A DNA stretch of 64,000 nucleotides from an uncultured Bacteroidia bacterium. GTDB taxonomy: Bacteria > Bacteroidota > Bacteroidia > Bacteroidales > CAJPTX01. Shown one piece after another: positions 17,692 through 50,108 of this stretch; position 1 is the stretch's first letter, and every line of letters starts with the position of its first letter. The notes beneath the pieces were generated by a model. The model saw nothing but the letters and a program-made list of their open reading frames with translations, had not been told where the DNA came from and made no database searches. The position numbers and the translations under genes are program-made. Where the stretch lies: NCBI GenBank assembly GCA_947252645.1, contig CAMXWF010000002.1, positions 72,632 through 136,631 on the forward strand, read 5' to 3'.

Positions 17692-20562
17692 ATGCGAAAA
17701 GATGAGTCGATCTGTCGGCGCACGCACATCGCCCTGCGCAGGCTCTTCGGCCTGTGGCTCGTCCTGCTAGTCCTAGCCCCCGCAAGCGCGCAGTTCTACA
17801 TCGGGGGCACAGAGCCCCTCAACGGCCCCCTCAAGCAAATCGTACTACCACCATTCAGGGTCATCTACCAGCCACACCAAGACTCCCTCGCGGGGCTGGC
17901 AGCGGACTACCTAGCGCGCTACCACCACCTCACCGCCCTCTCCAAGCAACGAAACCGACCCTTTCCCATCCTCCTGCGGGGCCTCACCCCCAACGCCAAC
18001 GGTATGGTGGCCTGGACGCCCTCGCGCATGGAACTCTACCCCCTGACGGCAGGCGAACTGGCCACTCCCAGACCGTGGCTCCAACACCTCGTCGCACACG
18101 AAATACGACACTACGCCCAGATGGAAGCCCTCGACAAGGCCTGGTTCAGAGCCCTATATTTCCTCCTGGGCCAGGCCAACGTCGCGTTGGCCTCTGCCAT
18201 CGCACCACCATGGCTCCTGGAAGGCGATGCCATCCACAGCGAAAGCCGCTTCGGACGCTTCGGACGAGCCATGGAGGCTAACCACCTACAGGCCTACCGA
18301 GCCGACCTGCTCAACGGCACTCCCAGAAATTACGACCAGTATCTCAATCGCAGCTTCCGCTACTACATGCCAAACCACTACACCTTCGGCTCGCTCCTAG
18401 TGGAATATGCCTACGACCGCTACGGTGAACAGTTCTGGCCCCAAGTATTCGAGTATGCCACCCGACATCTCCACTACATCCTTCCCTACCACTTCGCGCT
18501 AAAAAAGTATGCCGGCGTCGGGATAAGAAATCTTTTTGATTCCGCCTTCCTCGCCCTCGATTCCGTCTTCCGCCAACGCACCGAGCCGGGCGAGCTGCCG
18601 CCAGCTGAGCCCCTCGCGCACTTCGAAGACCAGCGCTACCCCCACCTCGCCCCCAATGCCCACTACCTCTACTACTGGCACTGGGACTTATCCCACACCA
18701 TGGGCCTCTATCGACTCGACCAGGCAACCCATACAAAAAAACGCCTGCTCCGCCCTGGCAGCCTGCTCGGCCGTCCACGCTACCGCAATAACCTAGTCAT
18801 CTGGCCAGAATTCAGGCAACACTCCCGCTGGGCCCTGCTGGCCTCGGCCGATGTCTACCTCGCCTCCCTGCCCGCGGGCAAGCTCAGAAGGCTCACCCGG
18901 GGCGCCATGCTCCTCTCTCCCGACATCCTGCACGGCGACTCCACCTTTACTGCCATCTCCGTGGCCCCTAATGGGCATCAAGAACTACAGATGCGTGCCC
19001 TAGCCAACGGAAGACTACTACGCACGGCCAAGATACACCAGTCCCTCGAACTGCGGGAAGCCGTCAACCACACCTCCAAGCAGCTCACGCTCCTCCGCGC
19101 GGTCAACGATCAGGGCACCTTGCTCTTCGCGTACTGCTGGGACACCGATTCCCTCATCGCGCTCTTACCCCCACAGCTACTCGACATCTCCAACCTCCAG
19201 CCCACCGATTCGGGCTTTTTCTTCACCATGAGCCACCGGGGACGCATACAGCCCTATTTCGCGTCCACCGACGGGCTACACCCCCCCACCCAGTTCTACC
19301 GTATCCCCCTAGCCAACCATGGCGTCGAGGACCTCAACGCACGCACACCGGCGTCCCTTATGCTCGCACGCTACACCGTCAACGGCTACCGCTACCAGCA
19401 GCTAGACTCCCTCTCCCTAGAGCCTGTGCTGGAGCTCAAGCCCGCCGAGCCCATCTTCCCACTCCGGCCTGTCGATCACGGGCCCCACACGCCAGATTCC
19501 CTTGCGCGCCCCGTGCGCTCCAAGCCCTACTCTCGTTTTACCCACGCCATCCGCGTACACAGCTGGGCACCCCTCCACTTCGATGCCCTCGGCGGAACTC
19601 CTGCTCCCACCTGGGGCTTCTCGCTCTACTCGCAGAACTCCCTCGGCTCCTTGGCCGCCACCGCCTCCTACTTCTACAATGGCTACCACGGTGCTCAGCT
19701 CCACGTGCTCTACGATGCCCTCTGGCCACGTATAGAAGCCCAGATCGTTTATGGGGGCGCACGCGCCGTGACCTATTCCACCCAGAGCACCTACTCCAAC
19801 GACCTGGCCCTACAGGGCACGCTCGCGCTCAACCTCCCCTTGCACCTCCGCCAAGGGGCCTGGAGCTTCTACCTTGCCCCCCTCGTGGCCATACAGGCCA
19901 CCAACGACACCTATTTCCCCCCTAGCGCCCCATCGGCCTTCCAGGGCTTACTCAAGCTACGCTATGGCCTGACCACCGCCGCCACACAGGTCAAAGCCCC
20001 ACGAGACCTCTACCCCCGTTTCGGCCTGCAACTCTCGGCCTACGGAGTCCATGTACTCTTCCCCCAGGCCCTCTTCGGGGAGCTGCTGCGCGCCGGCACC
20101 ACGCTCTACCTCCCGGGCTTTTACACTAACCACTCTTTCCGCCTCTCGGGAAGCTACGTGGACCAAACGCATGCCACCTATCGCGCCCTATTCACTGCCC
20201 CTAGCCGAGGCCGGGGGCTTTTCCCCTCCGCCCTAGGGCAGGATGCCACCAAGGCCTGGATGGCCGCCGCCGACTATACCCTCCCCCTAGCCTACCCCGA
20301 CCTGCGATGGGGAGTCCTGGCCTATTTTAAGCGCATCTACCTCAACCTCTCGGGCGCCTACACGCGTTTCCGCTCCAACTCCAATGGTTGGCAACAGCTC
20401 CGCGCCATTGGCCTCTCTTGGGGAATTGATCTACACCTCCTCCGCCTGCCTCCCATGATCAGCATCCTCCTCTCCGCCAACTATAGCCCCTGGGGCGACC
20501 ACCTATCCAAGCTCAAGCCCTACAATTGGGGCTTCGATGTGGACTTCAATGTCTCCCTCTAG
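17692..20562 (+). CDS. Large secreted/outer-membrane hypothetical protein with an HExxH zinc-metallopeptidase-like motif
   Basis: Signal peptide (LVLLVLAPASAQ); LVAHEIRHYAQ at about residue 135; aromatic-rich C-terminal third with alternating pattern suggestive of a beta-barrel. No family recognised. Confidence 0.6.
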   Translation: MRKDESICRRTHIALRRLFGLWLVLLVLAPASAQFYIGGTEPLNGPLKQIVLPPFRVIYQPHQDSLAGLAADYLARYHHLTALSKQRNRPFPILLRGLTPNANGMVAWTPSRMELYPLTAGELATPRPWLQHLVAHEIRHYAQMEALDKAWFRALYFLLGQANVALASAIAPPWLLEGDAIHSESRFGRFGRAMEANHLQAYRADLLNGTPRNYDQYLNRSFRYYMPNHYTFGSLLVEYAYDRYGEQFWPQVFEYATRHLHYILPYHFALKKYAGVGIRNLFDSAFLALDSVFRQRTEPGELPPAEPLAHFEDQRYPHLAPNAHYLYYWHWDLSHTMGLYRLDQATHTKKRLLRPGSLLGRPRYRNNLVIWPEFRQHSRWALLASADVYLASLPAGKLRRLTRGAMLLSPDILHGDSTFTAISVAPNGHQELQMRALANGRLLRTAKIHQSLELREAVNHTSKQLTLLRAVNDQGTLLFAYCWDTDSLIALLPPQLLDISNLQPTDSGFFFTMSHRGRIQPYFASTDGLHPPTQFYRIPLANHGVEDLNARTPASLMLARYTVNGYRYQQLDSLSLEPVLELKPAEPIFPLRPVDHGPHTPDSLARPVRSKPYSRFTHAIRVHSWAPLHFDALGGTPAPTWGFSLYSQNSLGSLAATASYFYNGYHGAQLHVLYDALWPRIEAQIVYGGARAVTYSTQSTYSNDLALQGTLALNLPLHLRQGAWSFYLAPLVAIQATNDTYFPPSAPSAFQGLLKLRYGLTTAATQVKAPRDLYPRFGLQLSAYGVHVLFPQALFGELLRAGTTLYLPGFYTNHSFRLSGSYVDQTHATYRALFTAPSRGRGLFPSALGQDATKAWMAAADYTLPLAYPDLRWGVLAYFKRIYLNLSGAYTRFRSNSNGWQQLRAIGLSWGIDLHLLRLPPMISILLSANYSPWGDHLSKLKPYNWGFDVDFNVSL

Positions 20563-20643: not shown

Positions 20644-22446
20644 ATGAAGTCCTTCTTCAAAATGGTGCTCGCAGTGATTGTGGGCTATCTCCTGCTCTCG
20701 CTGCTCTCCCTGTTGGCCATGTTGCCCTTTATCCTCTTGGTCGCCGCCTCGGATTCTGGACCCACGGTGGAGCCTCACTCTATCCTACGGATTAACCTAG
20801 GGCAGCCTATTGTCGAACGCGCGTATTTTTCCTCGCCCTTCTCCTTCTCTCGCCTGCCCAGCAAAGCAAGCTACGACCAGATCGAGCTGCTCCCGGCCCT
20901 AGAGGCCATCGACCACGCCATGGTCGACGACAAAATCACAGGGATCTACTTGGATTGTTCCGACTTCGCCCTAGACTTCTACAGCTCCGAGGAACTGCTA
21001 GCCAAGCTCCAGGAATTCGCCCAGGTGCCGGGGAAGTTCATCTATGCCTACGCCCCCAGCTTCTCCCAGTTTAACTACCTGCTGGCCTCCACCGCGGATA
21101 GCATTTTCATGAACCCAGCGGGCGACTTTTCTTGGTCGGGCTTGTCCACCACCGTCCTCTACATGAAAGACCTCTTCGACAAGCTGGGCATCGAGCCCCA
21201 GGTCGTCCGACACGGCAAATACAAGTCGGCCGTCGAGCCTTGCATCTCCAACCGCATGAGTGAGGCCAACCGCGAGCAGATCCTCTCCTACCTCAATGGC
21301 CTCTTTGGCTTCTTTACCCAAACCGTCGCTGAGGCCCGCCATATCCCCGTAGATTCCCTCAATGCCTTCGCCAACAACGTCTACCTCACGGGGGCCGACC
21401 GTGCGCTCAAGGCCGGCTTCATCGACGCCGAGGCCTACATCGATCAGCTCGACTCCCTGCTCATCGCCAAGTCGGGCCAACGCGACACCACCACCCCCAA
21501 CTTCGTTGACTTCGAGGACTACGTGGAGTACGCCAGCCGACACCGCGCCAAGAACAGGCCCAATGCGCCCCGCGTGGCCGTGCTCTACGCCCAGGGCAAC
21601 ATCGTGCAAACCGATGGCACCGAGCGTGAGATCGGCTCCCAGGGCTTCATCGACCTCATTAACGAACTCCGCACCGATGACGACATCCACGCCGTGGTGC
21701 TGCGCATCTGCTCGGGCGGCGGGAGCGCGCTGGCTTCCGAGGAAATCTGGCGCGCCCTCGAACTCCTCAAAGCGGAAAAGCCCCTCGTAGTCTCTATGGG
21801 CTCCATGGCCGCCTCCGGGGGCTACTATATTGCCAGCGGGGCCGACCGCATATTCGCCGACCGCACCACCCTCACCGGCTCCATCGGGGTCTTCGGCCTC
21901 TTCTTTACCGCCGAGTCCCTCTTTGCCGATAAGCTCGGGCTCACCCCGCAGCCTGTAAGAACCCACCAGCATGCAGACCTAGGCTCCCTCTTCCGCGGCA
22001 TGAGCGACCAGGAAAATAAAGTCCTCCAGGATATGGTAGAACGTGTCTATGGCACTTTCACCACCCGGGTGGCCGATGGACGTAAGTTGCGCCTGACCTA
22101 TGTCGATTCCATAGGCCAGGGCCGCGTATGGACAGGCGAGCAGGCCAGGGCCAACGGCCTGGTTGACTCCATTGCTGGCCTGCAGTCGGCTATCAAAACC
22201 GCGGCAGAGCTCGCGGCCCTCGACTCCTACCGCGTCAACGCCTATCCCAAGGTGAAAGACCAATTCCTCAAAAAATATCTCAAAACCCTCATGGGGGGCT
22301 TCGGCAGCGCAAGCCAAAATGCCCAGCTGCCCCTCGTGGATGAGCAGGTGGAGCTGCTCCGCCAAGTGGAGCAGATGCGGGGCATCCAGGCCCGCCTTCC
22401 TTTCCAGCTCTATCCGCCCAGAGCCAACGCCCAGCGCGTTTGGTAG
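20644..22446 (+). CDS. sppA: Signal peptide peptidase SppA, 67K type
   Basis: N-terminal TM and two ClpP/crotonase-like halves; catalytic region VVSMGSMAASGGYYIASGADRIFA; 600 aa. Confidence 0.88.
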   Translation: MKSFFKMVLAVIVGYLLLSLLSLLAMLPFILLVAASDSGPTVEPHSILRINLGQPIVERAYFSSPFSFSRLPSKASYDQIELLPALEAIDHAMVDDKITGIYLDCSDFALDFYSSEELLAKLQEFAQVPGKFIYAYAPSFSQFNYLLASTADSIFMNPAGDFSWSGLSTTVLYMKDLFDKLGIEPQVVRHGKYKSAVEPCISNRMSEANREQILSYLNGLFGFFTQTVAEARHIPVDSLNAFANNVYLTGADRALKAGFIDAEAYIDQLDSLLIAKSGQRDTTTPNFVDFEDYVEYASRHRAKNRPNAPRVAVLYAQGNIVQTDGTEREIGSQGFIDLINELRTDDDIHAVVLRICSGGGSALASEEIWRALELLKAEKPLVVSMGSMAASGGYYIASGADRIFADRTTLTGSIGVFGLFFTAESLFADKLGLTPQPVRTHQHADLGSLFRGMSDQENKVLQDMVERVYGTFTTRVADGRKLRLTYVDSIGQGRVWTGEQARANGLVDSIAGLQSAIKTAAELAALDSYRVNAYPKVKDQFLKKYLKTLMGGFGSASQNAQLPLVDEQVELLRQVEQMRGIQARLPFQLYPPRANAQRVW

Positions 22447-22535
22447 GTATCGCGCTTACCCACGCCTTTAATCCCGGGCGTGTCCACTGCCAGTGGACAC
22501 GCCCGGCTTCTTCCTAGGCTACGCCAGCTTTCCCG
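22226..22535. repeat. 310-bp direct repeat, copy 1 (last 221 nt of sppA plus terminator region)
   Basis: Read base for base against 26788-27097: identical, offset 4562 bp. Confidence 0.9.
22474..22506 (+). terminator. sppA terminator-like hairpin
   Basis: CCGGGCGTGTCCACTG / CAGTGGACACGCCCGG 16-nt inverted arms, 28 nt after the sppA stop. No clear U tract. Confidence 0.5.
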
Positions 22536-22667
22536 ATCGCCCCCTCACGCTAAGATACAACCAACCTTCGTTTTTGTTCTAGATGGCGCACTGATGTGAA
22601 ATGCAATCCATAAACCTCTCCCGCTAATGCGCAGCGCATGCCTACCCCATCTACCCCGTTCCCCCAT

Positions 22668-22711
22668 CGTATCAAACCCAATTATTCTCGGAGATAATTG
22701 GGTTTGATACG
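22668..22711. repeat. Perfect 18-bp inverted repeat (hairpin) upstream of the LRR gene
   Basis: CGTATCAAACCCAATTAT - 8 nt - ATAATTGGGTTTGATACG; AT-rich stem about 200 nt upstream of ATG 22909. Confidence 0.6.
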
Positions 22712-22908
22712 GCTTAGATACGGGTCCATGGGAATCAATTGGGAGCCGCGGCGTGGTGCACTTTCTGATTATTGCCCTACGGAAATGCACGCCACGCACA
22801 GTATGATTACGCAAAGAATCAGCCAACGGACGATGGGGGCGTCGCATCAAAAAACTTCACGTACCTTCACGGCGGATTTGACGATACACTTAAAAATTGG
22901 ATAGAATT

Positions 22909-25389
22909 ATGACGCAGTTCGTACGAGTGATGGCACTAATGGTGCTTTTTGCGCTGGGCGCATGGAATGCAAAGGGGCAAGCACAGCAAGGTTGGACGGA
23001 ATACGCTGTAAACGGCGTAACGTGGTTGGTACAGAAAATGGATGGAGCCGATGTGTATCGGATTAAACCGAAAGATAAAACGATTGGAGAAATCAGCATC
23101 CCTGCCCTAATAGATAATGGAAGCATTAAGGTTGTTGAGATTGCAGAAGATGCATTTACAAGATATGGTAGAGACCTGACTAAAGTGACCATTAGCAGCG
23201 GCATTGAGACCATCGGGCAGGCCGCCTTCAAGGGCTGCGAGAACCTCAAGGAGGTGACCATTGAGGAGGGCGTGAAGACCATTGGCTACAAAGCCTTCTA
23301 CGGATGCAAGAGCATCAAATCGCTAGTCATCCCCGCCACGGTGGAAACAGTCGTGGGGAACGAGAATACCTTTTCAGGCGCAGGATCATTCGAGGGGTGC
23401 AACGCACTGACCTCCCTCAAAATTAGTGCGAAGACCATCGGGCGCGGCGCATTCAAGGGCTGCGAGAACCTCAAGGAGGTGACCATTGAGGAGGGCGTGA
23501 AGACCATCGCCTACCAAGCCTTCTACGGATGCAAGAGCATCAAGTCGCTAGTCATACCCGCCTCGGTGGAAACCCTAGCGGGGAACGAGAATACCTTTTC
23601 GGGCGAAGGGTCATTCGAGGGGTGCAACGCGCTGACCACCCTCAGCATCGGCGTGAAGACCATCGGGAGGGCCGCCTTCAAAAACTGCAAAAACCTCAAG
23701 ACAGTGACCATTGAGGAGAGCGTGAAAACCATCCGCTTCGAGGCCTTTGGCGGGTGCGAGAGCATTGAGTCGCTGCGCATCCCCGCCACGGTGGAAACCG
23801 TTGTGGGGAACGAGGACCTCCATACGACCCGAGGGAGCTTCGAGGGGTGCAACGCGCTGACCACCCTCAGCATCGGCGCGAAGACCATCGGGCGCGGCGC
23901 ATTCAAGGGCTGCGAGAACCTCAAGGAGGTGACCATTGAGGAGGGCGTGAAGACCATCGCCTACCAAGCCTTCTATGGGTGCAAGAGCATCGAGTCGCTA
24001 GTCATCCCCGTCTCGGTGGAAACCCTAGCGGGGAACGAGAATACCTTTTCGGGCGAAGGATCATTCGAGGGGTGCAGCGCACTGACCTCCCTCAAAATCG
24101 GCGTGCAAGCCATTGGACGCAGCACATTCAAGGGCTGCGAGAACCTCAAGGAGGTGACCATTGAGGAGGGCGTGAAGACCATTGGCTACCAAGCCTTCTA
24201 TGGGTGCAAGAGCATCGAGTCGCTAGTCATCCCCGCCACGGTGGAAACCGTTGTGGGGAACGAGAATACCTTTTCGGGCGAAGGATCATTTGAGGGGTGC
24301 AGCGCACTGGCCTCCCTCAAAATCGGCGCGCAAACCATTGGACGCTATGCATTCAAGGGCTGCGAGAACCTCAAAGAGGTGACCATTGAGGAGGGCGTGA
24401 AGACCATCGCCTACCAAGCCTTCTACGGATGCAAGAGCATCGAGTCGCTAGTCATCCCCGCCTCGGTGGAAACCCTAGCTGGGAACGAGAATACCTTTTC
24501 GGGCGAAGGGTCCTTCGAGGGGTGTAGCGCACTGGCCACCCTTAAAATCGGCGCGAAGACCATCGGGCGAGCCGCATTTAAGGGCTGCGAGAACCTCAAG
24601 GAGGTGACCATTGAGGAGGGTGTGAGAACCATCGCCTACCAGGTCTTTGGCGGGTGCAAAAGCATTGAGTCGCTAGTCATCCCCGCCACGGTAGAAACCG
24701 TTGTGGGGAACGAGAATACCTTTTCGGGCGAAGGGTCATTTGAGGGATGCAGCGCGCTGGCCTCCCTCAAAATCGGCGCGCAAACCATTGGATGCGGCGC
24801 ATTCAAGGACTGCGGGAACCTCAAGGAGGTGACCATTGAAAAGGGTGTGAGAACCATTAAGGACGAAGCCTTTTCTGGCTGTAGAAAGATTACAAAAATT
24901 ACCGTTCCTAGCAGTGTAACCGAAATTGGGCTGAATGCTTTTGGCAGCTGCGCTGCGCTTAACGATGTAGTTTGGCTTGCGGCTGCTAATTGCAATGTGA
25001 GCGACGATGCATTCAAGAACATAGCGCAACCCGCCATTCTCCACGTAAGGCTGGGAGAAAAAGCGAAAATAGAGAGTAATGGAAAAACGTGGTGGCATCC
25101 TTTTACCATAGTAGAAGACGGAGTCGCCGATATTTCAGCCGTGGAAAGCACGCTGCTTGCCGAGGTGCGGGTAGTGCCTAACCCCATGCACAATACGTTA
25201 ACGCTTGAGGGAACCTCTTCGGCTATACGTGTGGAGGTGTACAGCGTGGCGGGAACACTGATGCAAACCTACACCCCACACGGCGAACCACGTATCGAGA
25301 TAGCCGCTGACGGGTGGCCCAGCGGAGTATACATGGTGCGTATGGTCGCGCAAGATGGGGCTAGAGTGATGCAGGTAGTAAAACGCTAA
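22909..25389 (+). CDS. BspA-type leucine-rich-repeat surface protein with T9SS C-terminal sorting domain
   Basis: Signal peptide MTQFVRVMALMVLFALGAWNAKGQA. About 24 LRR modules of the AFxGCxxLxxVxIxxxVxxIG type. C-terminal VRVVPNPMHNTLTLEG...VEVYSVAGTLM...WPSGVYMVRMVAQDGARVMQVVKR matches the Por/T9SS CTD pattern. Start moved from TTG 22897 to ATG 22909. Confidence 0.85.
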   Translation: MTQFVRVMALMVLFALGAWNAKGQAQQGWTEYAVNGVTWLVQKMDGADVYRIKPKDKTIGEISIPALIDNGSIKVVEIAEDAFTRYGRDLTKVTISSGIETIGQAAFKGCENLKEVTIEEGVKTIGYKAFYGCKSIKSLVIPATVETVVGNENTFSGAGSFEGCNALTSLKISAKTIGRGAFKGCENLKEVTIEEGVKTIAYQAFYGCKSIKSLVIPASVETLAGNENTFSGEGSFEGCNALTTLSIGVKTIGRAAFKNCKNLKTVTIEESVKTIRFEAFGGCESIESLRIPATVETVVGNEDLHTTRGSFEGCNALTTLSIGAKTIGRGAFKGCENLKEVTIEEGVKTIAYQAFYGCKSIESLVIPVSVETLAGNENTFSGEGSFEGCSALTSLKIGVQAIGRSTFKGCENLKEVTIEEGVKTIGYQAFYGCKSIESLVIPATVETVVGNENTFSGEGSFEGCSALASLKIGAQTIGRYAFKGCENLKEVTIEEGVKTIAYQAFYGCKSIESLVIPASVETLAGNENTFSGEGSFEGCSALATLKIGAKTIGRAAFKGCENLKEVTIEEGVRTIAYQVFGGCKSIESLVIPATVETVVGNENTFSGEGSFEGCSALASLKIGAQTIGCGAFKDCGNLKEVTIEKGVRTIKDEAFSGCRKITKITVPSSVTEIGLNAFGSCAALNDVVWLAAANCNVSDDAFKNIAQPAILHVRLGEKAKIESNGKTWWHPFTIVEDGVADISAVESTLLAEVRVVPNPMHNTLTLEGTSSAIRVEVYSVAGTLMQTYTPHGEPRIEIAADGWPSGVYMVRMVAQDGARVMQVVKR
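23221..24900 (+). repeat. About 7.5 tandem copies of a 225-bp (75-codon) unit inside the LRR gene
   Basis: Core TGCGAGAACCTCAAGGAGGTGACCATTGAGGAGGGCGTGAAGACCAT recurs at 23236, 23461, 23911, 24136, 24361 and 24586, with diverged copies at 23686 and 24811. All are in 225-bp register. Confidence 0.9.
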
Positions 25390-25418
25390 ACACACACACA
25401 GGATATACTACGGGGTAT

Positions 25419-25444
25419 GCGGGCGGACCAGCGTGTCCGCCCGC
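25419..25444 (+). terminator. Terminator-like GC-rich hairpin after the LRR gene
   Basis: GCGGGCGGAC - CAGCGT - GTCCGCCCGC 10-bp stem, 30 nt after the stop. No U tract. Confidence 0.45.
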
Positions 25445-26031
25445 GCCGTATTAGCCCTCATAACGCCTCGGTATAAGCCCAAGCTAAGACTACAGCCGAA
25501 CTCGGCCATAGCAGAATGTGAAAATGGATGGTCTCTTAGCTCTAGTTCAATGCAGGGGTATAGCTATACAGAGGCACCCCGCTACAGCTAGAAGGGTAGC
25601 TACGCGTCATGAAATAGGAGACTAGCCCCCCACACACTTCCCCCTCCTGGGTTTGCGCATCAATGCAGTCCTATCAGTAGAACGAGTACTGAAGCCGAAA
25701 ATCTTTAGCCATTCAGCCTATTGCCATAAGGGTGAAACGGTATAGAAGAGTGACCGGCGGAACCCTCCCGTACAATCCCTACGTTGAACTCGCATTCCTT
25801 TAGTTCCCTTTAGAATACGGTGATTCAAGGTAGTATCCCAAAAAGTGTGTAAGGCAGAACGTCTCTTTGAACTTCAGATGTACCTATCTTTTCGCTTTGC
25901 TTCCCGTAAAAAACAAAAAATAAACCTAAAAAGAATTAGGGCAAGGCTGTCGGAGCGAAGCGGAGGCACCGCCTTGCCGTATCCTTTTGGGTTGATACCT
26001 TTGTGTCGGGAAGTAAAGCGCATCATGCTGT

Positions 26032-26787
26032 TTACCATTCATCTACTCTCGTCAGCCCGGCAGAGAGGGCCCCTATTCTTTTCCTCAGGTAGGTGGCGTT
26101 CGTTGCTATGCTACCGATGAGATGGAGGGCCGATTTTACGCTCGGGAGGGCGCGCTTGTACCGTGCCCCTTTTTTGTTTCCCGATTGAAGCGCTCCAGCC
26201 AGTTGGTGCTGTGGATATACCTCCGGGCCCTCACGTCGTACTTGAGGTAGGTGAAGTAGTACTTGATCCGCTCCCCGCGCGCGACTTTAGAGAGGAAGGG
26301 GTAGTGCCCCCCCCCCCAGCGATCGGCAAAGGCCCTGAAGCGCATCACCCACTCCAGGGGAGCGCGCCCGGCGCTCCCGTAGCCAGAAACCTCATGGAGT
26401 TCCCCCGTGAAGGCAGACTTGTCTCTCGGCCGAACCTTTCGTGTCAGCTCCCTTCGGAGATGCACGGCGCAGAGCTGGACCTCTGCCCCCGGGAAGTGCT
26501 GCCTCGCTACCTCCTCTATACTATTGAGCTCATCCGAAATGATCAGGCCGACTTCCTCTAGCCCCCGGCGCTTCAAGTCCCCGAAGAACTCCCCCCAAAT
26601 ACCGCTCCCCTCCGTGGGGTTATTATACACCCCAACAATATCCCTCCGCCCCTCCCGGTCAAGGCTCATCACCACAAAGAAGGCCTCCTTGCTGACGCTG
26701 CCCCCCATCGAACCGACAGGAAGGTAGCATCAATAGCAAGGGCCTCAAGAGCCCGTGGGAGGGGCCTCCAGCTCCACGCCTCCACTG
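26032..26787 (-). mobile_element. IS256/Mutator-family transposase remnant, 5'-truncated and carrying two frameshifts
   Basis: Track ORF 26136..26708 has the IS256 core (LIISDELNSIEE...FPGAEVQLCAVHLRRE; STNWLERFNRETKK). My translation of 26709-26787 in another frame gives AVEAWSWRPLPRALEALAIDATFLSVR, the first-Asp region. 26032-26170 in a third frame gives KRALPSVKSALHLIGSIATN...DEW-stop. The shifts sit at a G6 run (26701-26706) and an A6G4 run (26166-26175). About 150 N-terminal codons are missing. Confidence 0.75.
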
Positions 26788-27008
26788 CCTACCGCGTCAA
26801 CGCCTATCCCAAGGTGAAAGACCAATTCCTCAAAAAATATCTCAAAACCCTCATGGGGGGCTTCGGCAGCGCAAGCCAAAATGCCCAGCTGCCCCTCGTG
26901 GATGAGCAGGTGGAGCTGCTCCGCCAAGTGGAGCAGATGCGGGGCATCCAGGCCCGCCTTCCTTTCCAGCTCTATCCGCCCAGAGCCAACGCCCAGCGCG
27001 TTTGGTAG
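26788..27008 (+). pseudogene. Orphan 3' fragment of sppA (last 73 codons)
   Basis: Track ORF 26814..27008 is identical to the SppA C-terminus (MKDQFLKKYLKTLMGG...ANAQRVW). There is no upstream sppA sequence. Confidence 0.85.
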
Positions 27009-27035
27009 GTATCGCGCTTACCCACGCCTTTAATC

Positions 27036-27068
27036 CCGGGCGTGTCCACTGCCAGTGGACACGCCCGG
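27036..27068 (+). terminator. Duplicate copy of the sppA terminator-like hairpin
   Basis: Same 16-nt inverted arms as 22474-22506 (offset 4562). Confidence 0.5.
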
Positions 27069-27188
27069 CTTCTTCCTAGGCTACGCCAGCTTTCCCGCTC
27101 ACCTTGTGCCGTTGGTGTCAGCAAAAACCTGGAAATGAGCTACTTTCAAGAATCCCTAGCACCCTATTGCAACCTGCTTAGAATTTGC

Positions 27189-27196
27189 TATATTTG
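27189..27196 (+). promoter_or_regulatory. Candidate -7 box TAtaTTTG for the small-protein transcription unit
   Basis: Exact TAnnTTTG 86 nt upstream of ATG 27282. The unit ends at the strong terminator at 27764. Confidence 0.35.
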
Positions 27197-27281
27197 CATT
27201 GCGCAGACGAGCCGCCTTCTCACCTATCGAGCCATGGGAGACTGTATGGTCAGGTCGGTGTAGTTTTAATGTATCAATATC

Positions 27282-27401
27282 ATGTCTAAGTGGTGTTTGA
27301 TGGGAGTGATGATGATTGCTCCAATCATCGCCTCGTGTAGTGCAGTAGATGCAGAAAAACCGGCCAATGGTGAGCGTAGTGTTACGCTTACCCAAGCGTA
27401 G
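27282..27401 (+). CDS. Possible 39-aa lipoprotein (below the ORF-track cutoff)
   Basis: My translation: MSKWCLMGVMMIAPIIASCSAVDAEKPANGERSVTLTQA, with lipobox IIASC. It lies in a lower-GC patch between a promoter box and the next small gene. Speculative. Confidence 0.25.
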   Translation: MSKWCLMGVMMIAPIIASCSAVDAEKPANGERSVTLTQA

Positions 27402-27528
27402 ACAGATGAATTCTGTAACGATTTTGTCGGTAGAGTGGTCTATGAGACCAACCTCTCTGTCCGGCTTCTCATTGCCGCTTCCTGTACGTGTCAACAGTAG
27501 TTTCGTCTTAAAATTTTGAGGTGTTATC

Positions 27529-27738
27529 ATGGAAAATATTCAGAGTAGGGGATTTCTGCATAGTAACGCTGCCCCGGTGTGGTTGCTTGCCGCGAGTATA
27601 GTCGTGACGCTCGCAGGGGCCTTGTTGAAAATCGAGCACCTCGTTGTCCCTCTGGCCACCACCCTTATGGCCATCGGCACTGTAGCTGCTCTCGCTGCCT
27701 TTATCTGGCTGCTAGTAGCCTTCGCGCGCCTCCGGTAG
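27529..27738 (+). CDS. Small two-TM membrane protein (GldL-N-terminus-like GALLKIEH motif)
   Basis: 69-aa ORF with two hydrophobic helices, followed 25 nt later by a strong terminator. Confidence 0.45.
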   Translation: MENIQSRGFLHSNAAPVWLLAASIVVTLAGALLKIEHLVVPLATTLMAIGTVAALAAFIWLLVAFARLR

Positions 27739-27763
27739 ACTACCTCGCATTGGCTCGAACTGT

Positions 27764-27806
27764 GGGTCTACTCCTCCGCGGCGCGGAGGAGTAGACCCTT
27801 CTTTAT
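27764..27806 (+). terminator. Rho-independent terminator
   Basis: GGGTCTACTCCTCCGCG / CGCGGAGGAGTAGACCC inverted arms followed by TTCTTTATT. Confidence 0.7.
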
Positions 27807-27946
27807 TCCCGTATGGGGCTAGGTTCTCTTTCCTTGGGCATCGCCGTGCAGCACCCCCCATTTGTCTAATTCGCCCGCCCCGCACCCCCTGTTGGGCTAC
27901 CACTTCTTCCCCCTTCAGCCCCAAGCCCGCCTAAGAGAATATTCTC

Positions 27947-27954
27947 TACCTTTG
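27947..27954 (+). promoter_or_regulatory. -7 box TAccTTTG upstream of the LptF/G-family gene
   Basis: Exact TAnnTTTG 23 nt before the TTG start at 27977. Confidence 0.4.
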
Positions 27955-27976
27955 TCAACAAATACTTGCCTCGGCC

Positions 27977-29578
27977 TTGTACCGCCTTCATCGTCTCCTG
28001 CTCCGGGCATTCTTGGGCCCCATGGTGCTCACGTTTCTCATCGTGATGTTCATCATGGTCATGCAGTTCCTATGGAAGTACATCGATGAGCTGGTCGGCA
28101 AAGGGTTCACCATAGACCTCATCCTGGAGCTCATGGGCTATGCGGCCGTGACCCTCATCCCCATGGCCATGCCGCTGGCATTGCTCTTGGCCGCCCTGAT
28201 GACCATGGGCAACTTGGGCGAGCATAGCGAGCTGCTGGCCATGAAGGCCGCAGGAATCTCCTTGGTCCGCATCCTAGCCCCCATGGCCGTGGTGAGCACA
28301 ATGATTGCGGTGCTTGCGTTCTTCATTGGTAACAACGTGGCGCCCGTGGCCTGCCGGAAGATGGACTCCCTCATCTACAGCATGCGCCAGAAAAAACCCG
28401 AGCTCATCATCCGCCCGGGCATGTTCTATAACGGCATCGAAAACTATACCATCCGGGTCGACTCCGTCCGCAAAAAGCCCGCCATGATGTTTGGCATCAT
28501 GATCTACGATCACTCCGCCGGGCTGGGCAACGTGGCGGTCACCGTCGCCGATTCGGGCAACATCGACATGGCCGCCGACCAGCAAAGCCTCCGCGTGGAG
28601 CTCTTCTCCGGCTGCGCCTACGAAGAACTCGAACCCAACGCCTTCTACGCCCAAGAGGCCGCCCTGCCGGCCAGAAGGGTGCAGTTCAAACGTCAAGTAG
28701 GCCTGCAGAAGCTCGAGGGGTTCGACTTCAAACGCGAGGACGAAAACCTCTTCAAGGATGACTACATGGCCATGAACGTGGCCCAGATCCGTCACTACGC
28801 CGACTCCGTCAGGCAGATTATCGACACCTGCCACCAGCGCCGCCTTCGCCTAGTGCTGCGCCAGTTGCGCTATCGACCCGCGCCTGAGTCTGTCGACTCT
28901 GCGACTCTAAAGCCAGGCCCCGACAGCCTCGCTGCCGACACGCAGAGCCCGGCCCCTACCGCGGTCCTGGCTGCCCAGCCCGCCCCGGCCCGCCCCGCCA
29001 ACGACACCGCCCCACTGCGCGGCTCAGCACAGCTTCACGACACCCTCCTGCTCCACCCATTGCCTTTTGACTCCATCTACCAGGCCTCTGCGCGCCCCGA
29101 CCGCCGCCGCTACCTGGGCCTAGCCCTCTCGCGGGCCCAGATGGCTAAGGAGGGACTCGCGTCCCTCACCGACGACCACGATTACTACCAACGGCGCATG
29201 GTGCGCTACCTCGTGGAGTTGCACAGAAAGTACACCCTCTCAGTGGCCTGCATCCTCTTCTTCTTCATCGGGGCGCCCCTAGGCGCCATCATCAAGAAGG
29301 GCGGTTTCGGCGTCCCCACCGGCATCTCGGTGCTCTTCTTTGTAGTCTACTACGTCGTCTCGCTCACCACCGAGAAATTCGCCCGCCAGCTTACTTGGGA
29401 CGTGCTGCCCGGCATGTGGTTCAGCACCTGGATCCTGGTCCCCGTGGCCTTGGCGTTGCTCTACAGGGCGACCAACGAGTCCAGCCTCCTCCGGGGCAGG
29501 CTCTGGCCCACCTGGCCCGCTCGCCCCCGTCAAGCGCCGCGGGTCAAGCCTTCCCAACCGCGCGATACAACAGAATAG
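27977..29578 (+). CDS. LptF/LptG-family (YjgP/YjgQ) lipopolysaccharide export permease
   Basis: N-terminus YRLHRLLLRAFLGPMVLTFLIVMFIMVMQFLWKYIDELVGKG; 6 TM pattern with a large periplasmic loop. TTG start per the track. Contains a Pro/Ala-rich insert. Confidence 0.8.
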   Translation: MYRLHRLLLRAFLGPMVLTFLIVMFIMVMQFLWKYIDELVGKGFTIDLILELMGYAAVTLIPMAMPLALLLAALMTMGNLGEHSELLAMKAAGISLVRILAPMAVVSTMIAVLAFFIGNNVAPVACRKMDSLIYSMRQKKPELIIRPGMFYNGIENYTIRVDSVRKKPAMMFGIMIYDHSAGLGNVAVTVADSGNIDMAADQQSLRVELFSGCAYEELEPNAFYAQEAALPARRVQFKRQVGLQKLEGFDFKREDENLFKDDYMAMNVAQIRHYADSVRQIIDTCHQRRLRLVLRQLRYRPAPESVDSATLKPGPDSLAADTQSPAPTAVLAAQPAPARPANDTAPLRGSAQLHDTLLLHPLPFDSIYQASARPDRRRYLGLALSRAQMAKEGLASLTDDHDYYQRRMVRYLVELHRKYTLSVACILFFFIGAPLGAIIKKGGFGVPTGISVLFFVVYYVVSLTTEKFARQLTWDVLPGMWFSTWILVPVALALLYRATNESSLLRGRLWPTWPARPRQAPRVKPSQPRDTTE

Positions 29579-36459: not shown

Positions 36460-37576
36460 ATGCCGGTAACGCACGAGATGGTAGCGGATTTGCAGCAGCG
36501 CCAGGATGCGCTGGGGAGGTATCTTTGACATCGCGGGTCGTAGGGTGCGGGTCCAAGAGCTAACTGCGCTTTCGCAGGCTCCTGGATTCTGGGACGATTC
36601 GAAGGCCGCAGAGGGGCAGCTGCGCACGCTCGGGAGCGAGAAGAGCTGGGTAAGCAGCTATGAGGCCTTGGCGGAGCTGGTGGATGAGCTGGAGCTGACC
36701 TATGAGTACGCCAAGTCGGGTGAGGCCGATGAGGCCGCGCTGGCTGCGAGCTACGAGAAGGCTCTGCAGGCCGTGAAGGACTTGGAGTTTAAGAAGATGC
36801 TCTCGCAGAAGGAGGACGGCCTCGGGGCGCTGTTGAGCATCAATTCGGGCGCGGGGGGTACGGAGAGCATGGATTGGGCAGGGATGCTCCTGCGCATGTA
36901 CCAGATGTGGGCGCAGCGCCACGGGTATGGTATTCGGGTGAACGATTTGAAGGAGGGCGAGGAGGCTGGGATTAAGTCGGTGAGCATAGAGGTGGTGGGG
37001 CCCATGGCGTATGGATACCTGAAGGGGGAGAGCGGGGTCCATCGCTTGGTGCGGATCTCTCCGTTTGACTCCAATGCGCGGCGCCACACGTCCTTTGCTT
37101 CGGTGTACGTGATGCCGGCCATTGACGACACGATAGAGATCACCATTTCCCCGGCTGACATCAAGTGGGACACCTACCGCTCGCCTGGGGCTGGGGGGCA
37201 GAACGTGAACAAGGTGGAGACGGGCGTGCGGCTCTACCACATCCCCACGGGCATTGTGGTGGAGAACACGGAAACGCGCTCGCAGGCCAATAATCGGGAG
37301 AATGCCCTCAGGATTCTCAAGTCGCACCTCTACGACCTGGAGCTCCGCAAGCGTGAGGAGGAGAAGCACCGGCTGGCGGGTCTGAAGAAGAAGATCGAGT
37401 GGGGCTCGCAGATCCGAAACTATGTGCTGCAGCCCTACCGCCTGGTGAAGGATTTGCGCACGGGCACGGAGAGCAGCGATGTGCAGGGGGTGCTGGGGGG
37501 CGAGATCGATGATTTTTTAAAGTCCTATCTGCTCTCGCAGCAGCTGCTTACGGAAAACGCGGAGGGCGAAAAGTAG
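36460..37576 (+). CDS. prfB: Peptide chain release factor 2, expressed via programmed +1 frameshift: join(36460..36525,36527..37576)
   Basis: Frame-1 leader [22 protein letters not shown] ends in CTT TGA C. The +1 frame continues [24 protein letters not shown]... with the SPF (RISPFDS) and GGQ ([13 protein letters not shown]) motifs. Confidence 0.92.
36513..36529 (+). promoter_or_regulatory. prfB recoding site: internal SD-like GGGGAGG, 3-nt spacer TAT, slippery CTT TGA C
   Basis: GGGGAGGTATCTTTGAC read directly. It matches the canonical RF2 autoregulatory frameshift cassette. Confidence 0.85.
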
Positions 37577-48833: not shown

Positions 48834-50108
48834 CTATTTTCGTACTTCAATTACGAACTCAAAGGTATCACCGCACCTGTAGGTGTGCTGATTATGCTCA
48901 TCCGTGTCGTCCTTAAAATGAACGCTTTGATTGCATATTAGGTCGTCACTGAGGTTGATGGTAGCCTTTGTATACATACTTAGCCCCGCAATAGAGCACT
49001 CTATAGTAAAGGTTGCTATATCTCCTTCGTCCACTTCAACGAACGACACACTGTAGAAGTCGTTTAACAGCATCCCCTTCTCCCAGCGTCCAATCTCGTT
49101 ACCGCAGTCTTTCCAAGCGCCATTCCACCAGCCCTTGTCACTGTAGCTCCATGTGTTATGCTGATTTTGCATGTACGTGTGGCATACTACTTCGGGTCTT
49201 CCGCGCCACCGGGATTCGTACAGCCGCATGGCATCTTGACTCGTGAAGTGAGCCTTGACTAAGAACTCTTGAGTACCAAGAACAGCACTCCGGAACACCT
49301 TGGTTCCTATAGGAGTCCCGCTCCCGCCAGTTCCCAGGTTCCACCTATGGTCATCGTGAGGCATTTTGTAGTAGTAGCGCCTATGCTCCGAACCAGCACC
49401 TTCGATGTTGTCTGTGCCGCAGGACATATACTCGAAGTAGAGTTGCGCTTCTGGCCCCATTCCCCCGATGCCCTCTACTGTGATACGCTCACTCACCCCA
49501 AGCACCAGCAAAGGTCTATCTTTTTCGGCATTGACATCGATCGCTAAAGATTTACCGTTACGATCATAAACGAGAAGGCTCTCGGGGTGCCGTTCACTAC
49601 AGCCTGTAGGTGCAATTACTATGGCAAGTCTGGGATCTGTGAGTCCTTGTGTTATGTCTCCTGAATAATTGTCTTCTGCCGGTACAAAAAGTACATTTTG
49701 TAGCGGGTTGGCCGAGAGTAAGGAGTCAAGGAATGTCGGGCTCGCGCCTCTCGTAGGCTGGTCATAACGGTTAGCGAAGTGCTGTAAGAACGAAGCAGTT
49801 GCCTCACTCCACTCGGTGCCCCTAGTTCTAGTGGGCGACATCATCTCCGCCAGCAGCACCTCGCTATCTCCATCGCGTTCGAAGCCAAGCCCCTTTGAGA
49901 GTCCATCCCTAAATGCGCCATCAGAGAGTCCTTTTACCATCGCTTCAAGGAGCTTCTTTTGCAGCGCTGTGGTGTTACTATCATCGGGGAGAGCTTGGCC
50001 GATGGACTCTGGCCGTACCCCCTCAACGGGAGCAGCTTCTCGCTTGGCGCACGCTGTAGCCAGCAGCACCAGCAAAACTGCGTACATGGTCACTCTAAAT
50101 CGCTTCAT
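48834..50108 (-). CDS. Hypothetical lipoprotein (424 aa), no recognisable family
   Basis: Lipobox LLATAC; natural amino-acid composition; Trp/His/Cys-rich C-terminal half. Confidence 0.6.
   Translation of the reverse strand: MKRFRVTMYAVLLVLLATACAKREAAPVEGVRPESIGQALPDDSNTTALQKKLLEAMVKGLSDGAFRDGLSKGLGFERDGDSEVLLAEMMSPTRTRGTEWSEATASFLQHFANRYDQPTRGASPTFLDSLLSANPLQNVLFVPAEDNYSGDITQGLTDPRLAIVIAPTGCSERHPESLLVYDRNGKSLAIDVNAEKDRPLLVLGVSERITVEGIGGMGPEAQLYFEYMSCGTDNIEGAGSEHRRYYYKMPHDDHRWNLGTGGSGTPIGTKVFRSAVLGTQEFLVKAHFTSQDAMRLYESRWRGRPEVVCHTYMQNQHNTWSYSDKGWWNGAWKDCGNEIGRWEKGMLLNDFYSVSFVEVDEGDIATFTIECSIAGLSMYTKATINLSDDLICNQSVHFKDDTDEHNQHTYRCGDTFEFVIEVRK

Follow-up and report, generated by a model that had tools for sequence, protein, structure and literature searches.

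How does a surface-protein gene come to stand between two copies of the end of a housekeeping gene, at a site that holds no dedicated machinery for its insertion? This question is raised by a stretch of 64,000 nucleotides of an uncultured Bacteroidia bacterium (here the window), which is part of the European Nucleotide Archive scaffold BLOO22-1_SAMN25037372_METAG-scaffold_8 (263,657 bp). In it, the signal peptide peptidase gene sppA is followed by a 4252-bp insert and then by an orphan copy of its own 3′ end. We propose that this is a chromosomal presence/absence variant, and that it was probably, though far from certainly, generated when a foreign cassette and part of an insertion sequence (IS) were joined to the locus by microhomology-guided illegitimate recombination or template switching, duplicating 310 bp of the target. 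It is no new kind of element: the mechanism belongs to an ordinary class of structural change, which is neatly documented here.

A repeat of the sppA 3′ end brackets a composite insert

The duplicated sequence (R) is an exact 310-bp direct repeat, with 22226–22535 equal to 26788–27097 at an offset of 4562 bp and with the first outside base mismatched on both sides. The chance expectation for such a repeat is effectively zero. According to a 30-mer census, R is the sole long dispersed repeat in the window, the remaining repeats of at least 30 bases being all intragenic tandem arrays. It starts in codon 528 of the 600 codons of sppA, the last 73 of which fall in copy 1, and includes a terminator-like hairpin; the surroundings of the latter (101 nt, 22440–22540) fold with a minimum free energy of −43.6 kcal/mol (z −4.8). 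Copy 2 is called as an orphan open reading frame (ORF) of 51 aa (26853–27008). The DNA that follows it holds a 69-aa ORF (27529–27738) and another terminator-like hairpin (27764–27798). sppA remains intact beside the insert; copy 2 and the IS remnant described below would be inert. The features of the locus are collected in Table 1.

Table 1. Coordinates, strand and supporting evidence of the features that make up the sppA locus and its insert.
Feature	Position in window	Strand	Evidence
sppA, signal peptide peptidase, 600 aa, intact	20644–22446	+	Peptidase_S49, E 5.9e-71; TIGR00705 SppA_67K, 410.8 bits against a cutoff of 311
R copy 1: sppA 3′ end and downstream hairpin	22226–22535	+	Exact 310-bp match to copy 2
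Terminator-like hairpin, 15-bp stem, 3-nt loop, CUUCUUCC tail	22474–22506; copied at 27036–27068	+	Sequence scan and folding
Left-joint microhomology, CGCCAGCTTTCCCG at the R end against CACCAGCTCTCCCT immediately before the cassette in the suf-rnf locus	22522–22535	+	11/14 bases
Insert part I-a, leucine-rich repeat (LRR) cassette: 373-bp upstream region, gene and 441-bp downstream region	22536–25830	+	Nucleotide homology to L045, L046 and L047
BspA-type LRR surface-protein gene, 826 aa, putative signal peptide and type IX secretion system (T9SS) C-terminal sorting domain	22909–25389	+	Profile matches
Tandem array, 225 bp × 7.3 copies, 75-aa LRR modules, ~85% identical	23207–24857	+	Repeat analysis, inside the LRR gene
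Insert part I-b, IS256-family remnant, 5′-truncated, frameshifted near 26710	25831–26787	−	Profiles and frame analysis
Right-joint microhomology, CCTCCACT(G) at the IS fragment end against CCTCGACT (22218–22225) preceding R in sppA	26779–26787	+	7/8 bases, 1-nt offset
R copy 2: orphan sppA 3′ fragment and second hairpin	26788–27097	+	Exact match to copy 1
Ancestral sppA-downstream DNA leading to lptF/G	27098–28021	+	Directly after the single R in L003 and L038

The insert is composite. Its left part is a cassette whose only gene codes for a BspA-type LRR protein with the three traits of T9SS cargo of this type: LRR_5 repeats in 8 stretches (E 2.7e-127), a sorting domain (29 bits for TIGR04183 against a cutoff of 23, and 26.6 bits for Pfam PF18962, Por_Secre_tail, slightly under the cutoff of 27) and an N-terminus, MTQFVRVMALMVLFALGAWNAKGQAQQ, that looks like a signal peptide by inspection. 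A stretch of 746 bp with lower GC and no ORF (25390–26135) follows the gene.

The right part is what is left of an IS256-family element. Its Transposase_mut/IS256 ORF fragment (26136–26708, minus strand) continues in another frame to 26787, where it abuts copy 2. The fragment matches positions 176–347 of the 379 of PF00872 (E 1.8e-29; 103 bits against a cutoff of 21) and scores 146.3 bits with NF033543, under the cutoff of 150 because only positions 137–312 of 338 are present. Family membership is given by its DDE transposase of the Mutator/IS256 type. About the first 135–175 residues of the transposase (the N-terminal third) and one end of the element are missing. The two terminal inverted repeats and the 8–9-bp target duplication of a complete IS are not found: the sole flanking repeat is of 310 bp and abuts internal IS sequence. 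As a relative on contig L043 runs on beyond the point equivalent to 26787, the IS is truncated internally. Its outer end is putatively placed at 25831, from the loss of homology to the contigs L045–L047 described below and from contig L042, which ends exactly at 25830.

A preliminary description of this locus, made from the sequence alone, had reported an exact 310-bp duplication of the sppA 3′ end and its hairpin bracketing an insertion, an intact sppA completed by copy 1 and orphaned in copy 2, an insert composed of an LRR/T9SS gene, ORF-free lower-GC DNA and a decayed IS256 transposase, and truncation of this transposase at the first base of copy 2. The ORF calls, the profile matches and the frame analysis agree with it on every one of these points; the repeat extends no further on either side, and the transposase reading continues up to 26787.

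The insert codes for nothing else than the LRR protein and the IS fragment, and the profile search identified no recombinase, replication, mobilisation or integrase gene among them. When the insert DNA was compared with the PLSDB plasmids, no match was obtained.

Some observations on the two parts of the insert can be added. Homologues of the LRR protein (P0015–P0023, P0147) of 460, 535, 676 and 826 aa differ by whole 75-aa modules, the window allele being the longest seen. The LRR upstream region contains a perfect inverted repeat with 16-bp arms (TATCAAACCCAATTAT ... ATAATTGGGTTTGATA, 22670–22709), largely kept in the suf-rnf copies of L045 and L046, where the left arm has a single substitution at its outer end; it could be a regulatory or terminator element. 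A scan for sigma-70 promoters gave 3 sites against 3.0 in shuffled sequence, and no promoter is claimed. The closest longer relative of the IS (L043, Logan SRR5568673, positions 736–1497; ~80% nucleotide identity) is itself a decayed transposase of 253 aa. It adjoins fragmented type I restriction genes and a Mob_Pre remnant, a mobile-element graveyard.

Strains with and without the insert

Contigs of the window species from other samples, assembled by MEGAHIT or taken from Logan, were found by exact-protein look-ups. Two of them have an empty site, in which sppA, a single R and the downstream DNA follow each other directly. In L003 (ERZ27231625), 2811 of 2811 upstream bases and 549 of 550 downstream bases are as in the window, and three differences lie inside R. 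L038 (SRR28705475, 20 kb) is 99.2% and 97.9% identical to the window on the two sides, and comes from a strain 1–2% diverged. Contigs of 395–438 kb carry sppA and lptF variants and no member of the LRR cluster, which implies further empty sites. The single-R sites of L003 and L038 indicate that continuity from R to the downstream DNA is ancestral and that the insert and one R are derived.

When the LRR protein, the transposase fragment and the orphan 51-aa ORF were looked up as exact proteins, nothing beyond the scaffold of the window came back; occupied sites were reached through homologue searches instead. Contig L044 (8123 bp; ERZ27283158, assembled by MEGAHIT) starts at R coordinate 124, enters the insert across 22535/22536 and leaves it across 26787/26788, to end at R coordinate 212. 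L042 (Logan, ERR12873868) covers 25830–26817, that is, the junction from insert to R and 30 nt of R. In three more samples, contigs of the downstream DNA begin exactly k−1 bases before the R end, and one contig with sppA and R (Logan L004) ends exactly at 22535. Since both new junctions recur in independent assemblies, they are not chimeras of a single assembly.

The insert is hence a real variant that some strains have and others do not. Both states occur in near-identical backgrounds, as the comparison of L003 with the window flanks shows between samples. The heterogeneity in presence of the adhesin segment that had been anticipated in the preliminary description does exist in this form, with empty L003 and L038 on one side and insert-bearing L042 and L044 on the other. 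These empty sites served for the comparison of the locus among related genomes that it had called for; a scan of the GTDB species genomes with SppA provided no close genome, the best match being 41% identical, and the literature, searched by sample and run accession, yielded nothing.

Two other sources of evidence were discarded. A scan of JGI metagenome contigs for the 19-mer that closes R gave 22 matches, all of them by chance and with no homology to the window. LRR variants of 816 aa (P0148 and P0151) were considered as evidence of contigs running from the insert through R to the downstream DNA; they are ambiguous, as the shorter form may correspond to a start choice of the gene caller, and only a contig size of 4668 bp was used from them.

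The occupied contig of sample ERZ27283158 (L044:420–4008) contains an extra 3.35-kb insert immediately upstream of the LRR start codon, at the point that corresponds to 22885/22886 of the window. It encodes two proteins that match no family and one of 536 aa whose C-terminal part is a nuclease toxin domain of the WHH/colicin-DNase type. A duplication of ~118 bp of the LRR upstream region (22768–22885) brackets it, the second copy being diverged in its first ~25 nt.

The joints

At both joints, short homologies are present. The 11/14 match at the left joint is the single best among the 44,036 positions of L045, and the 7/8 match at the right joint is the only such site among 1900 IS-remnant positions. 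Neither joint is at an element end, and the right breakpoint is located inside the transposase gene. The segment can be traced to another locus, and its breakpoints bear no relation to the ends of an element. Short homologies at both joints, together with the lack of an element end and of a recombinase, favour illegitimate, microhomology-guided joining over transposition.

The cassette has homologues in another lineage

On the three contigs that were read (L045, L046 and L047), a homologous LRR gene sits between sufB and the rnf operon. Homologues P0015, P0021 and P0147 are on long contigs of a different, far more often sampled Bacteroidia lineage; P0016, P0017 and P0020 share a contig with suf genes, as judged from equal contig bp. 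The cassette DNA is 87–93% identical to L045–L047, non-coding flanks included, and this homology begins at the left joint (22524–22536) and ends at 25828–25830.

The window species is a distant relative of that lineage. Seven of its housekeeping proteins fall in small 90%-identity clusters without members of the suf-rnf lineage. Its release factor 2 (RF-2) has a best non-self match of at most 74% identity, the nearest named one being that of Candidatus Bacteroides periocalifornicus (73%), a bacterium associated with periodontitis. Housekeeping proteins less than 90% identical, next to a cassette 87–93% identical in DNA, argue that the cassette was acquired horizontally. Most simply, it would have come from a relative of the suf-rnf lineage, after an IS256 element had landed beside the cassette.

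The identity of the two copies does not date the event

In the preliminary description, the lack of divergence between the copies of R was taken as a sign of a recent event. The occupied sites contradict this. Window and L044 have both junctions in common and differ at 81 of 4232 positions (~2% overall): ~0.5–1% in the LRR gene, ~4% in the IS remnant and 4 of 212 positions in R copy 2. The same junctions in such diverged haplotypes indicate that the event predates the divergence of the two strains.

The contig ends produced by MEGAHIT, when analyzed arithmetically at k = 141, also speak of copies that differ. L002 matches the window at 100% identity and stops at 22500, where the first 141-mer free of site 22359 comes to its end, and L035 begins at the last 141-mer inside R. 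The insert unitig predicted from these ends (141 + 4252 + 275 = 4668 bp) agrees exactly in size with the contig that encodes P0151, an LRR protein with the same sequence as that of the window from residue 11 on. L044 ends where the first 141-mer not covering site 26858 ends, and its two ends overlap by 89 nt within R. Very probably, then, the insert-linked R of the window strain differs from the sppA-linked R, at least at R coordinate 134. The perfect identity seen in the window scaffold is probably one consensus used twice, that is, homogenisation by the assembler, as a scaffolder that reuses one repeat node yields identical copies by construction. Perfect identity of repeats in a short-read metagenome scaffold is, as a warning of method, unfit for dating the event.

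All four single-nucleotide polymorphisms in R copy 2 of L044 are at third codon positions, and three of them are also present in L003 and L004, where they are synonymous because the SppA of both contigs is identical to that of the window. Polymorphisms confined to third codon positions suggest that the orphan carries alleles from functional genes, and point to recombinational exchange rather than to independent decay. The R allele of L003 (G, T, T) resembles the insert-linked R allele of L044; it is equally possible that it resulted from a precise deletion through recombination in the first 58 bp of R, or that an ancestral empty allele was brought in by recombination.

Proposed origin of the insertion

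The ancestral locus would have consisted of sppA, its terminator, the 69-aa ORF and lptF/G, with a single R. The 4252-bp foreign segment, made up of the suf-rnf LRR/T9SS cassette and of part of an IS256-family element inserted at the right edge of the cassette, would have been joined with its left end after 22535, just beyond the sppA terminator, and with its right end, inside the IS, before 22226, 310 bp upstream. Since the left end would thus be attached downstream of the right end, the 310 bp from one point to the other would be present twice. We infer that the joining was either one replicative template switch, of the MMBIR kind (break-induced replication mediated by microhomology), or a double illegitimate recombination bridging sister duplexes. 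The LRR gene would have arrived carrying its own upstream region. Insert-bearing and empty alleles would afterwards have been shuffled among strains by homologous recombination, with the R copies exchanging sequence with functional sppA alleles. Recombination of R with R could delete the cassette precisely, so that a surface protein with variable repeats would be present in some strains and absent from others.

Several points weigh against this proposal. The microhomologies are imperfect, and the right joint requires a 1-nt offset. One-step and multi-step origins yield the same final sequence. The tandem order sppA–R–insert–R–downstream rests on one scaffold, and every de Bruijn contig fits equally well a chromosome with the empty site, accompanied by a circle that R and the insert form. 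Contig L004 crosses the R start unbroken yet stops exactly at the R end, for which the model has no explanation. The search for the donor of the insert, also suggested in the preliminary description, reached the homologous suf-rnf context and not the actual donor: the sampled suf-rnf cassettes are 7–13% diverged, and none has an IS.

Of the alternatives, the one that survives best is that put forward in the preliminary description, a Campbell-type integration in which a circle that already bore cassette and IS fragment along with 310 bp of the sppA 3′ end entered by one RecA-dependent crossover at the chromosomal copy of this end. The arrangement is exactly what a single crossover produces, direct copies of the target-homologous segment flanking the insert. 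The R alleles linked to the insert and to sppA differ, as if the circle had brought its own, with a crossover in coordinates 135–310, and the overlap of the L044 contig ends within R also speaks for it. The circle itself, however, would have had to acquire both illegitimate joints and then recombine once more, which is less parsimonious. The absence of replication, mobilisation and integrase genes from the insert and of any match in PLSDB leaves it without the attributes of a circular replicon, and no circular form was observed among the contigs. We therefore regard this integration as doubtful, and as unsupported by the present data.

A scaffolding artefact is improbable. It would consist of an empty chromosome and a separate small circle of R and the insert (4.56 kb; 7.9 kb in L044), threaded through the shared repeat. 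De Bruijn graph topology is identical for the tandem and circle structures, and the arithmetic of the contig ends fits both as well; moreover, among the MEGAHIT and Logan contigs, none reads through R to link sppA with the insert, or the insert with the downstream DNA. Against it, the circle would lack a replication gene and match no known plasmid, its persistence across samples with 1–4% divergence would be impossible for a non-replicating molecule, and the scaffold took the tandem path, presumably guided by read pairs. A free circle of R and the insert is thus unlikely.

We give similarly low credit to an origin in two steps, by homology-facilitated illegitimate recombination. Foreign DNA would first have joined sppA at codon 528 in a donor strain, disrupting the gene; a fragment with insert, R and downstream DNA would then have entered a wild-type strain, by homology on the right side and illegitimately, at the R end, on the left. 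This would account for the difference between insert-linked and sppA-linked R and for the 14-nt imperfect homology at the left joint, and alleles of both kinds have clearly been exchanged between strains. It nevertheless requires two independent illegitimate events, and also a donor with a disrupted sppA, which was not seen in any contig.

A bolder extension, which we consider quite improbable, is that R and the insert together work as a recombinase-free hitch-hiking module. Recombination of R with R would free a non-replicating circle in which 310 bp of sppA serve the adhesin gene as an "address tag", to be re-integrated at sppA in other strains by host RecA. Should this be true, the surface-protein gene would spread in the manner of a natural suicide vector, as a circle or linear copy taken up by other strains, and the ~118-bp promoter duplication around the toxin cassette of L044 would be a second product of the same habit.

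Transposition of IS256 as the source of the duplication, be it through a target-site duplication or as part of a composite transposon, is scarcely credible in spite of the IS256-family fragment at one edge of the insert: target duplications of this family are of 8–9 bp and not of 310 bp, the joint to R is inside the transposase gene and not at an IS end, and the other edge has no IS sequence, the native flank of the cassette being joined directly to R. These junction positions rule it out, in line with the preliminary description, which had also rejected a transposition target-site duplication. A tandem duplication of R and the insert followed by deletion was ruled out as well, because continuity from R to the downstream DNA is ancestral.

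Relation to known systems

Insertions by replicative template switching, with small copy-number gains at the insertion site, have been described in humans (PMC5120786), and double illegitimate recombination has been described in bacteria (Hulter and Wackernagel 2008, as cited in PMC12359135). The window locus shares with MMBIR, with fork stalling and template switching (FoSTeS) and with bacterial double illegitimate recombination a segment that originates from an unrelated locus, two joints with short imperfect homologies, the lack of a recombinase and a small gain of target. It differs from FoSTeS/MMBIR in that the process is deduced from one natural product, in that the donor is apparently foreign and in that the homologies are imperfect (11/14, and 7/8 with an offset).

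As in the Campbell co-integrates formed by suicide vectors or plasmids, direct copies bracket the inserted DNA, and loss is possible through their recombination; unlike these, the insert lacks a vector backbone, an origin, an integrase and an att site, and no circle was observed. In the polymorphic-toxin loci of the Rhs and contact-dependent inhibition (CDI) types, displacement of cassettes leaves orphan 3′ gene fragments, and the order of an intact gene, new DNA and then an orphan copy of the gene's 3′ end is the same here. Unlike in those loci, sppA is a gene for a housekeeping protease and not for a toxin, and its orphan is of the same sequence class and not a displaced alternative tip.

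The LRR protein resembles the BspA family of Tannerella forsythia in its LRR_5 repeats, signal peptide and T9SS type A sorting domain, and in the variation of module number between alleles. Its identity to characterised adhesins is low (116 bits with the HupY/LrrG model against a cutoff of 1250), and its role as an adhesin is a prediction from sequence. The IS fragment is akin to the IS256 family by its matches to PF00872 and NF033543 and by ~35% identity to annotated transposases (tblastn); unlike family members it is only a remnant, frameshifted and devoid of its N-terminal third and of one end, and the flanking repeat is not its product.

If the proposed origin is correct, the locus is a natural example of the capture of a foreign surface-protein gene without dedicated machinery at the site, two microhomology joints having sufficed, and the long target duplication makes the acquisition reversible. 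It also marks a strain-variable and repeat-variable LRR adhesin candidate in an uncultured Bacteroidia lineage.

Other observations in the window

Upstream of sppA, an ORF of 956 aa (17692–20562) matches nothing in Pfam or NCBIfam. Two contigs made by different assemblers, L003 and L004, start inside it (19415–19426), and the differences from L038 cluster at 19569–20100, which suggests a hypervariable or polymorphic segment (19415–20100). An ORF of 424 aa on the minus strand (48834–50108) contains an internal direct repeat with a 375-bp offset (49891–50096 and its copy). The gene at 36506–37576, first taken for release factor 1 (RF-1), is that of RF-2 (prfB) according to named homologues. It is a single ORF of 356 aa, and many relatives are called as 290-aa products; the usual programmed frameshift may be present in the relatives or absent here.

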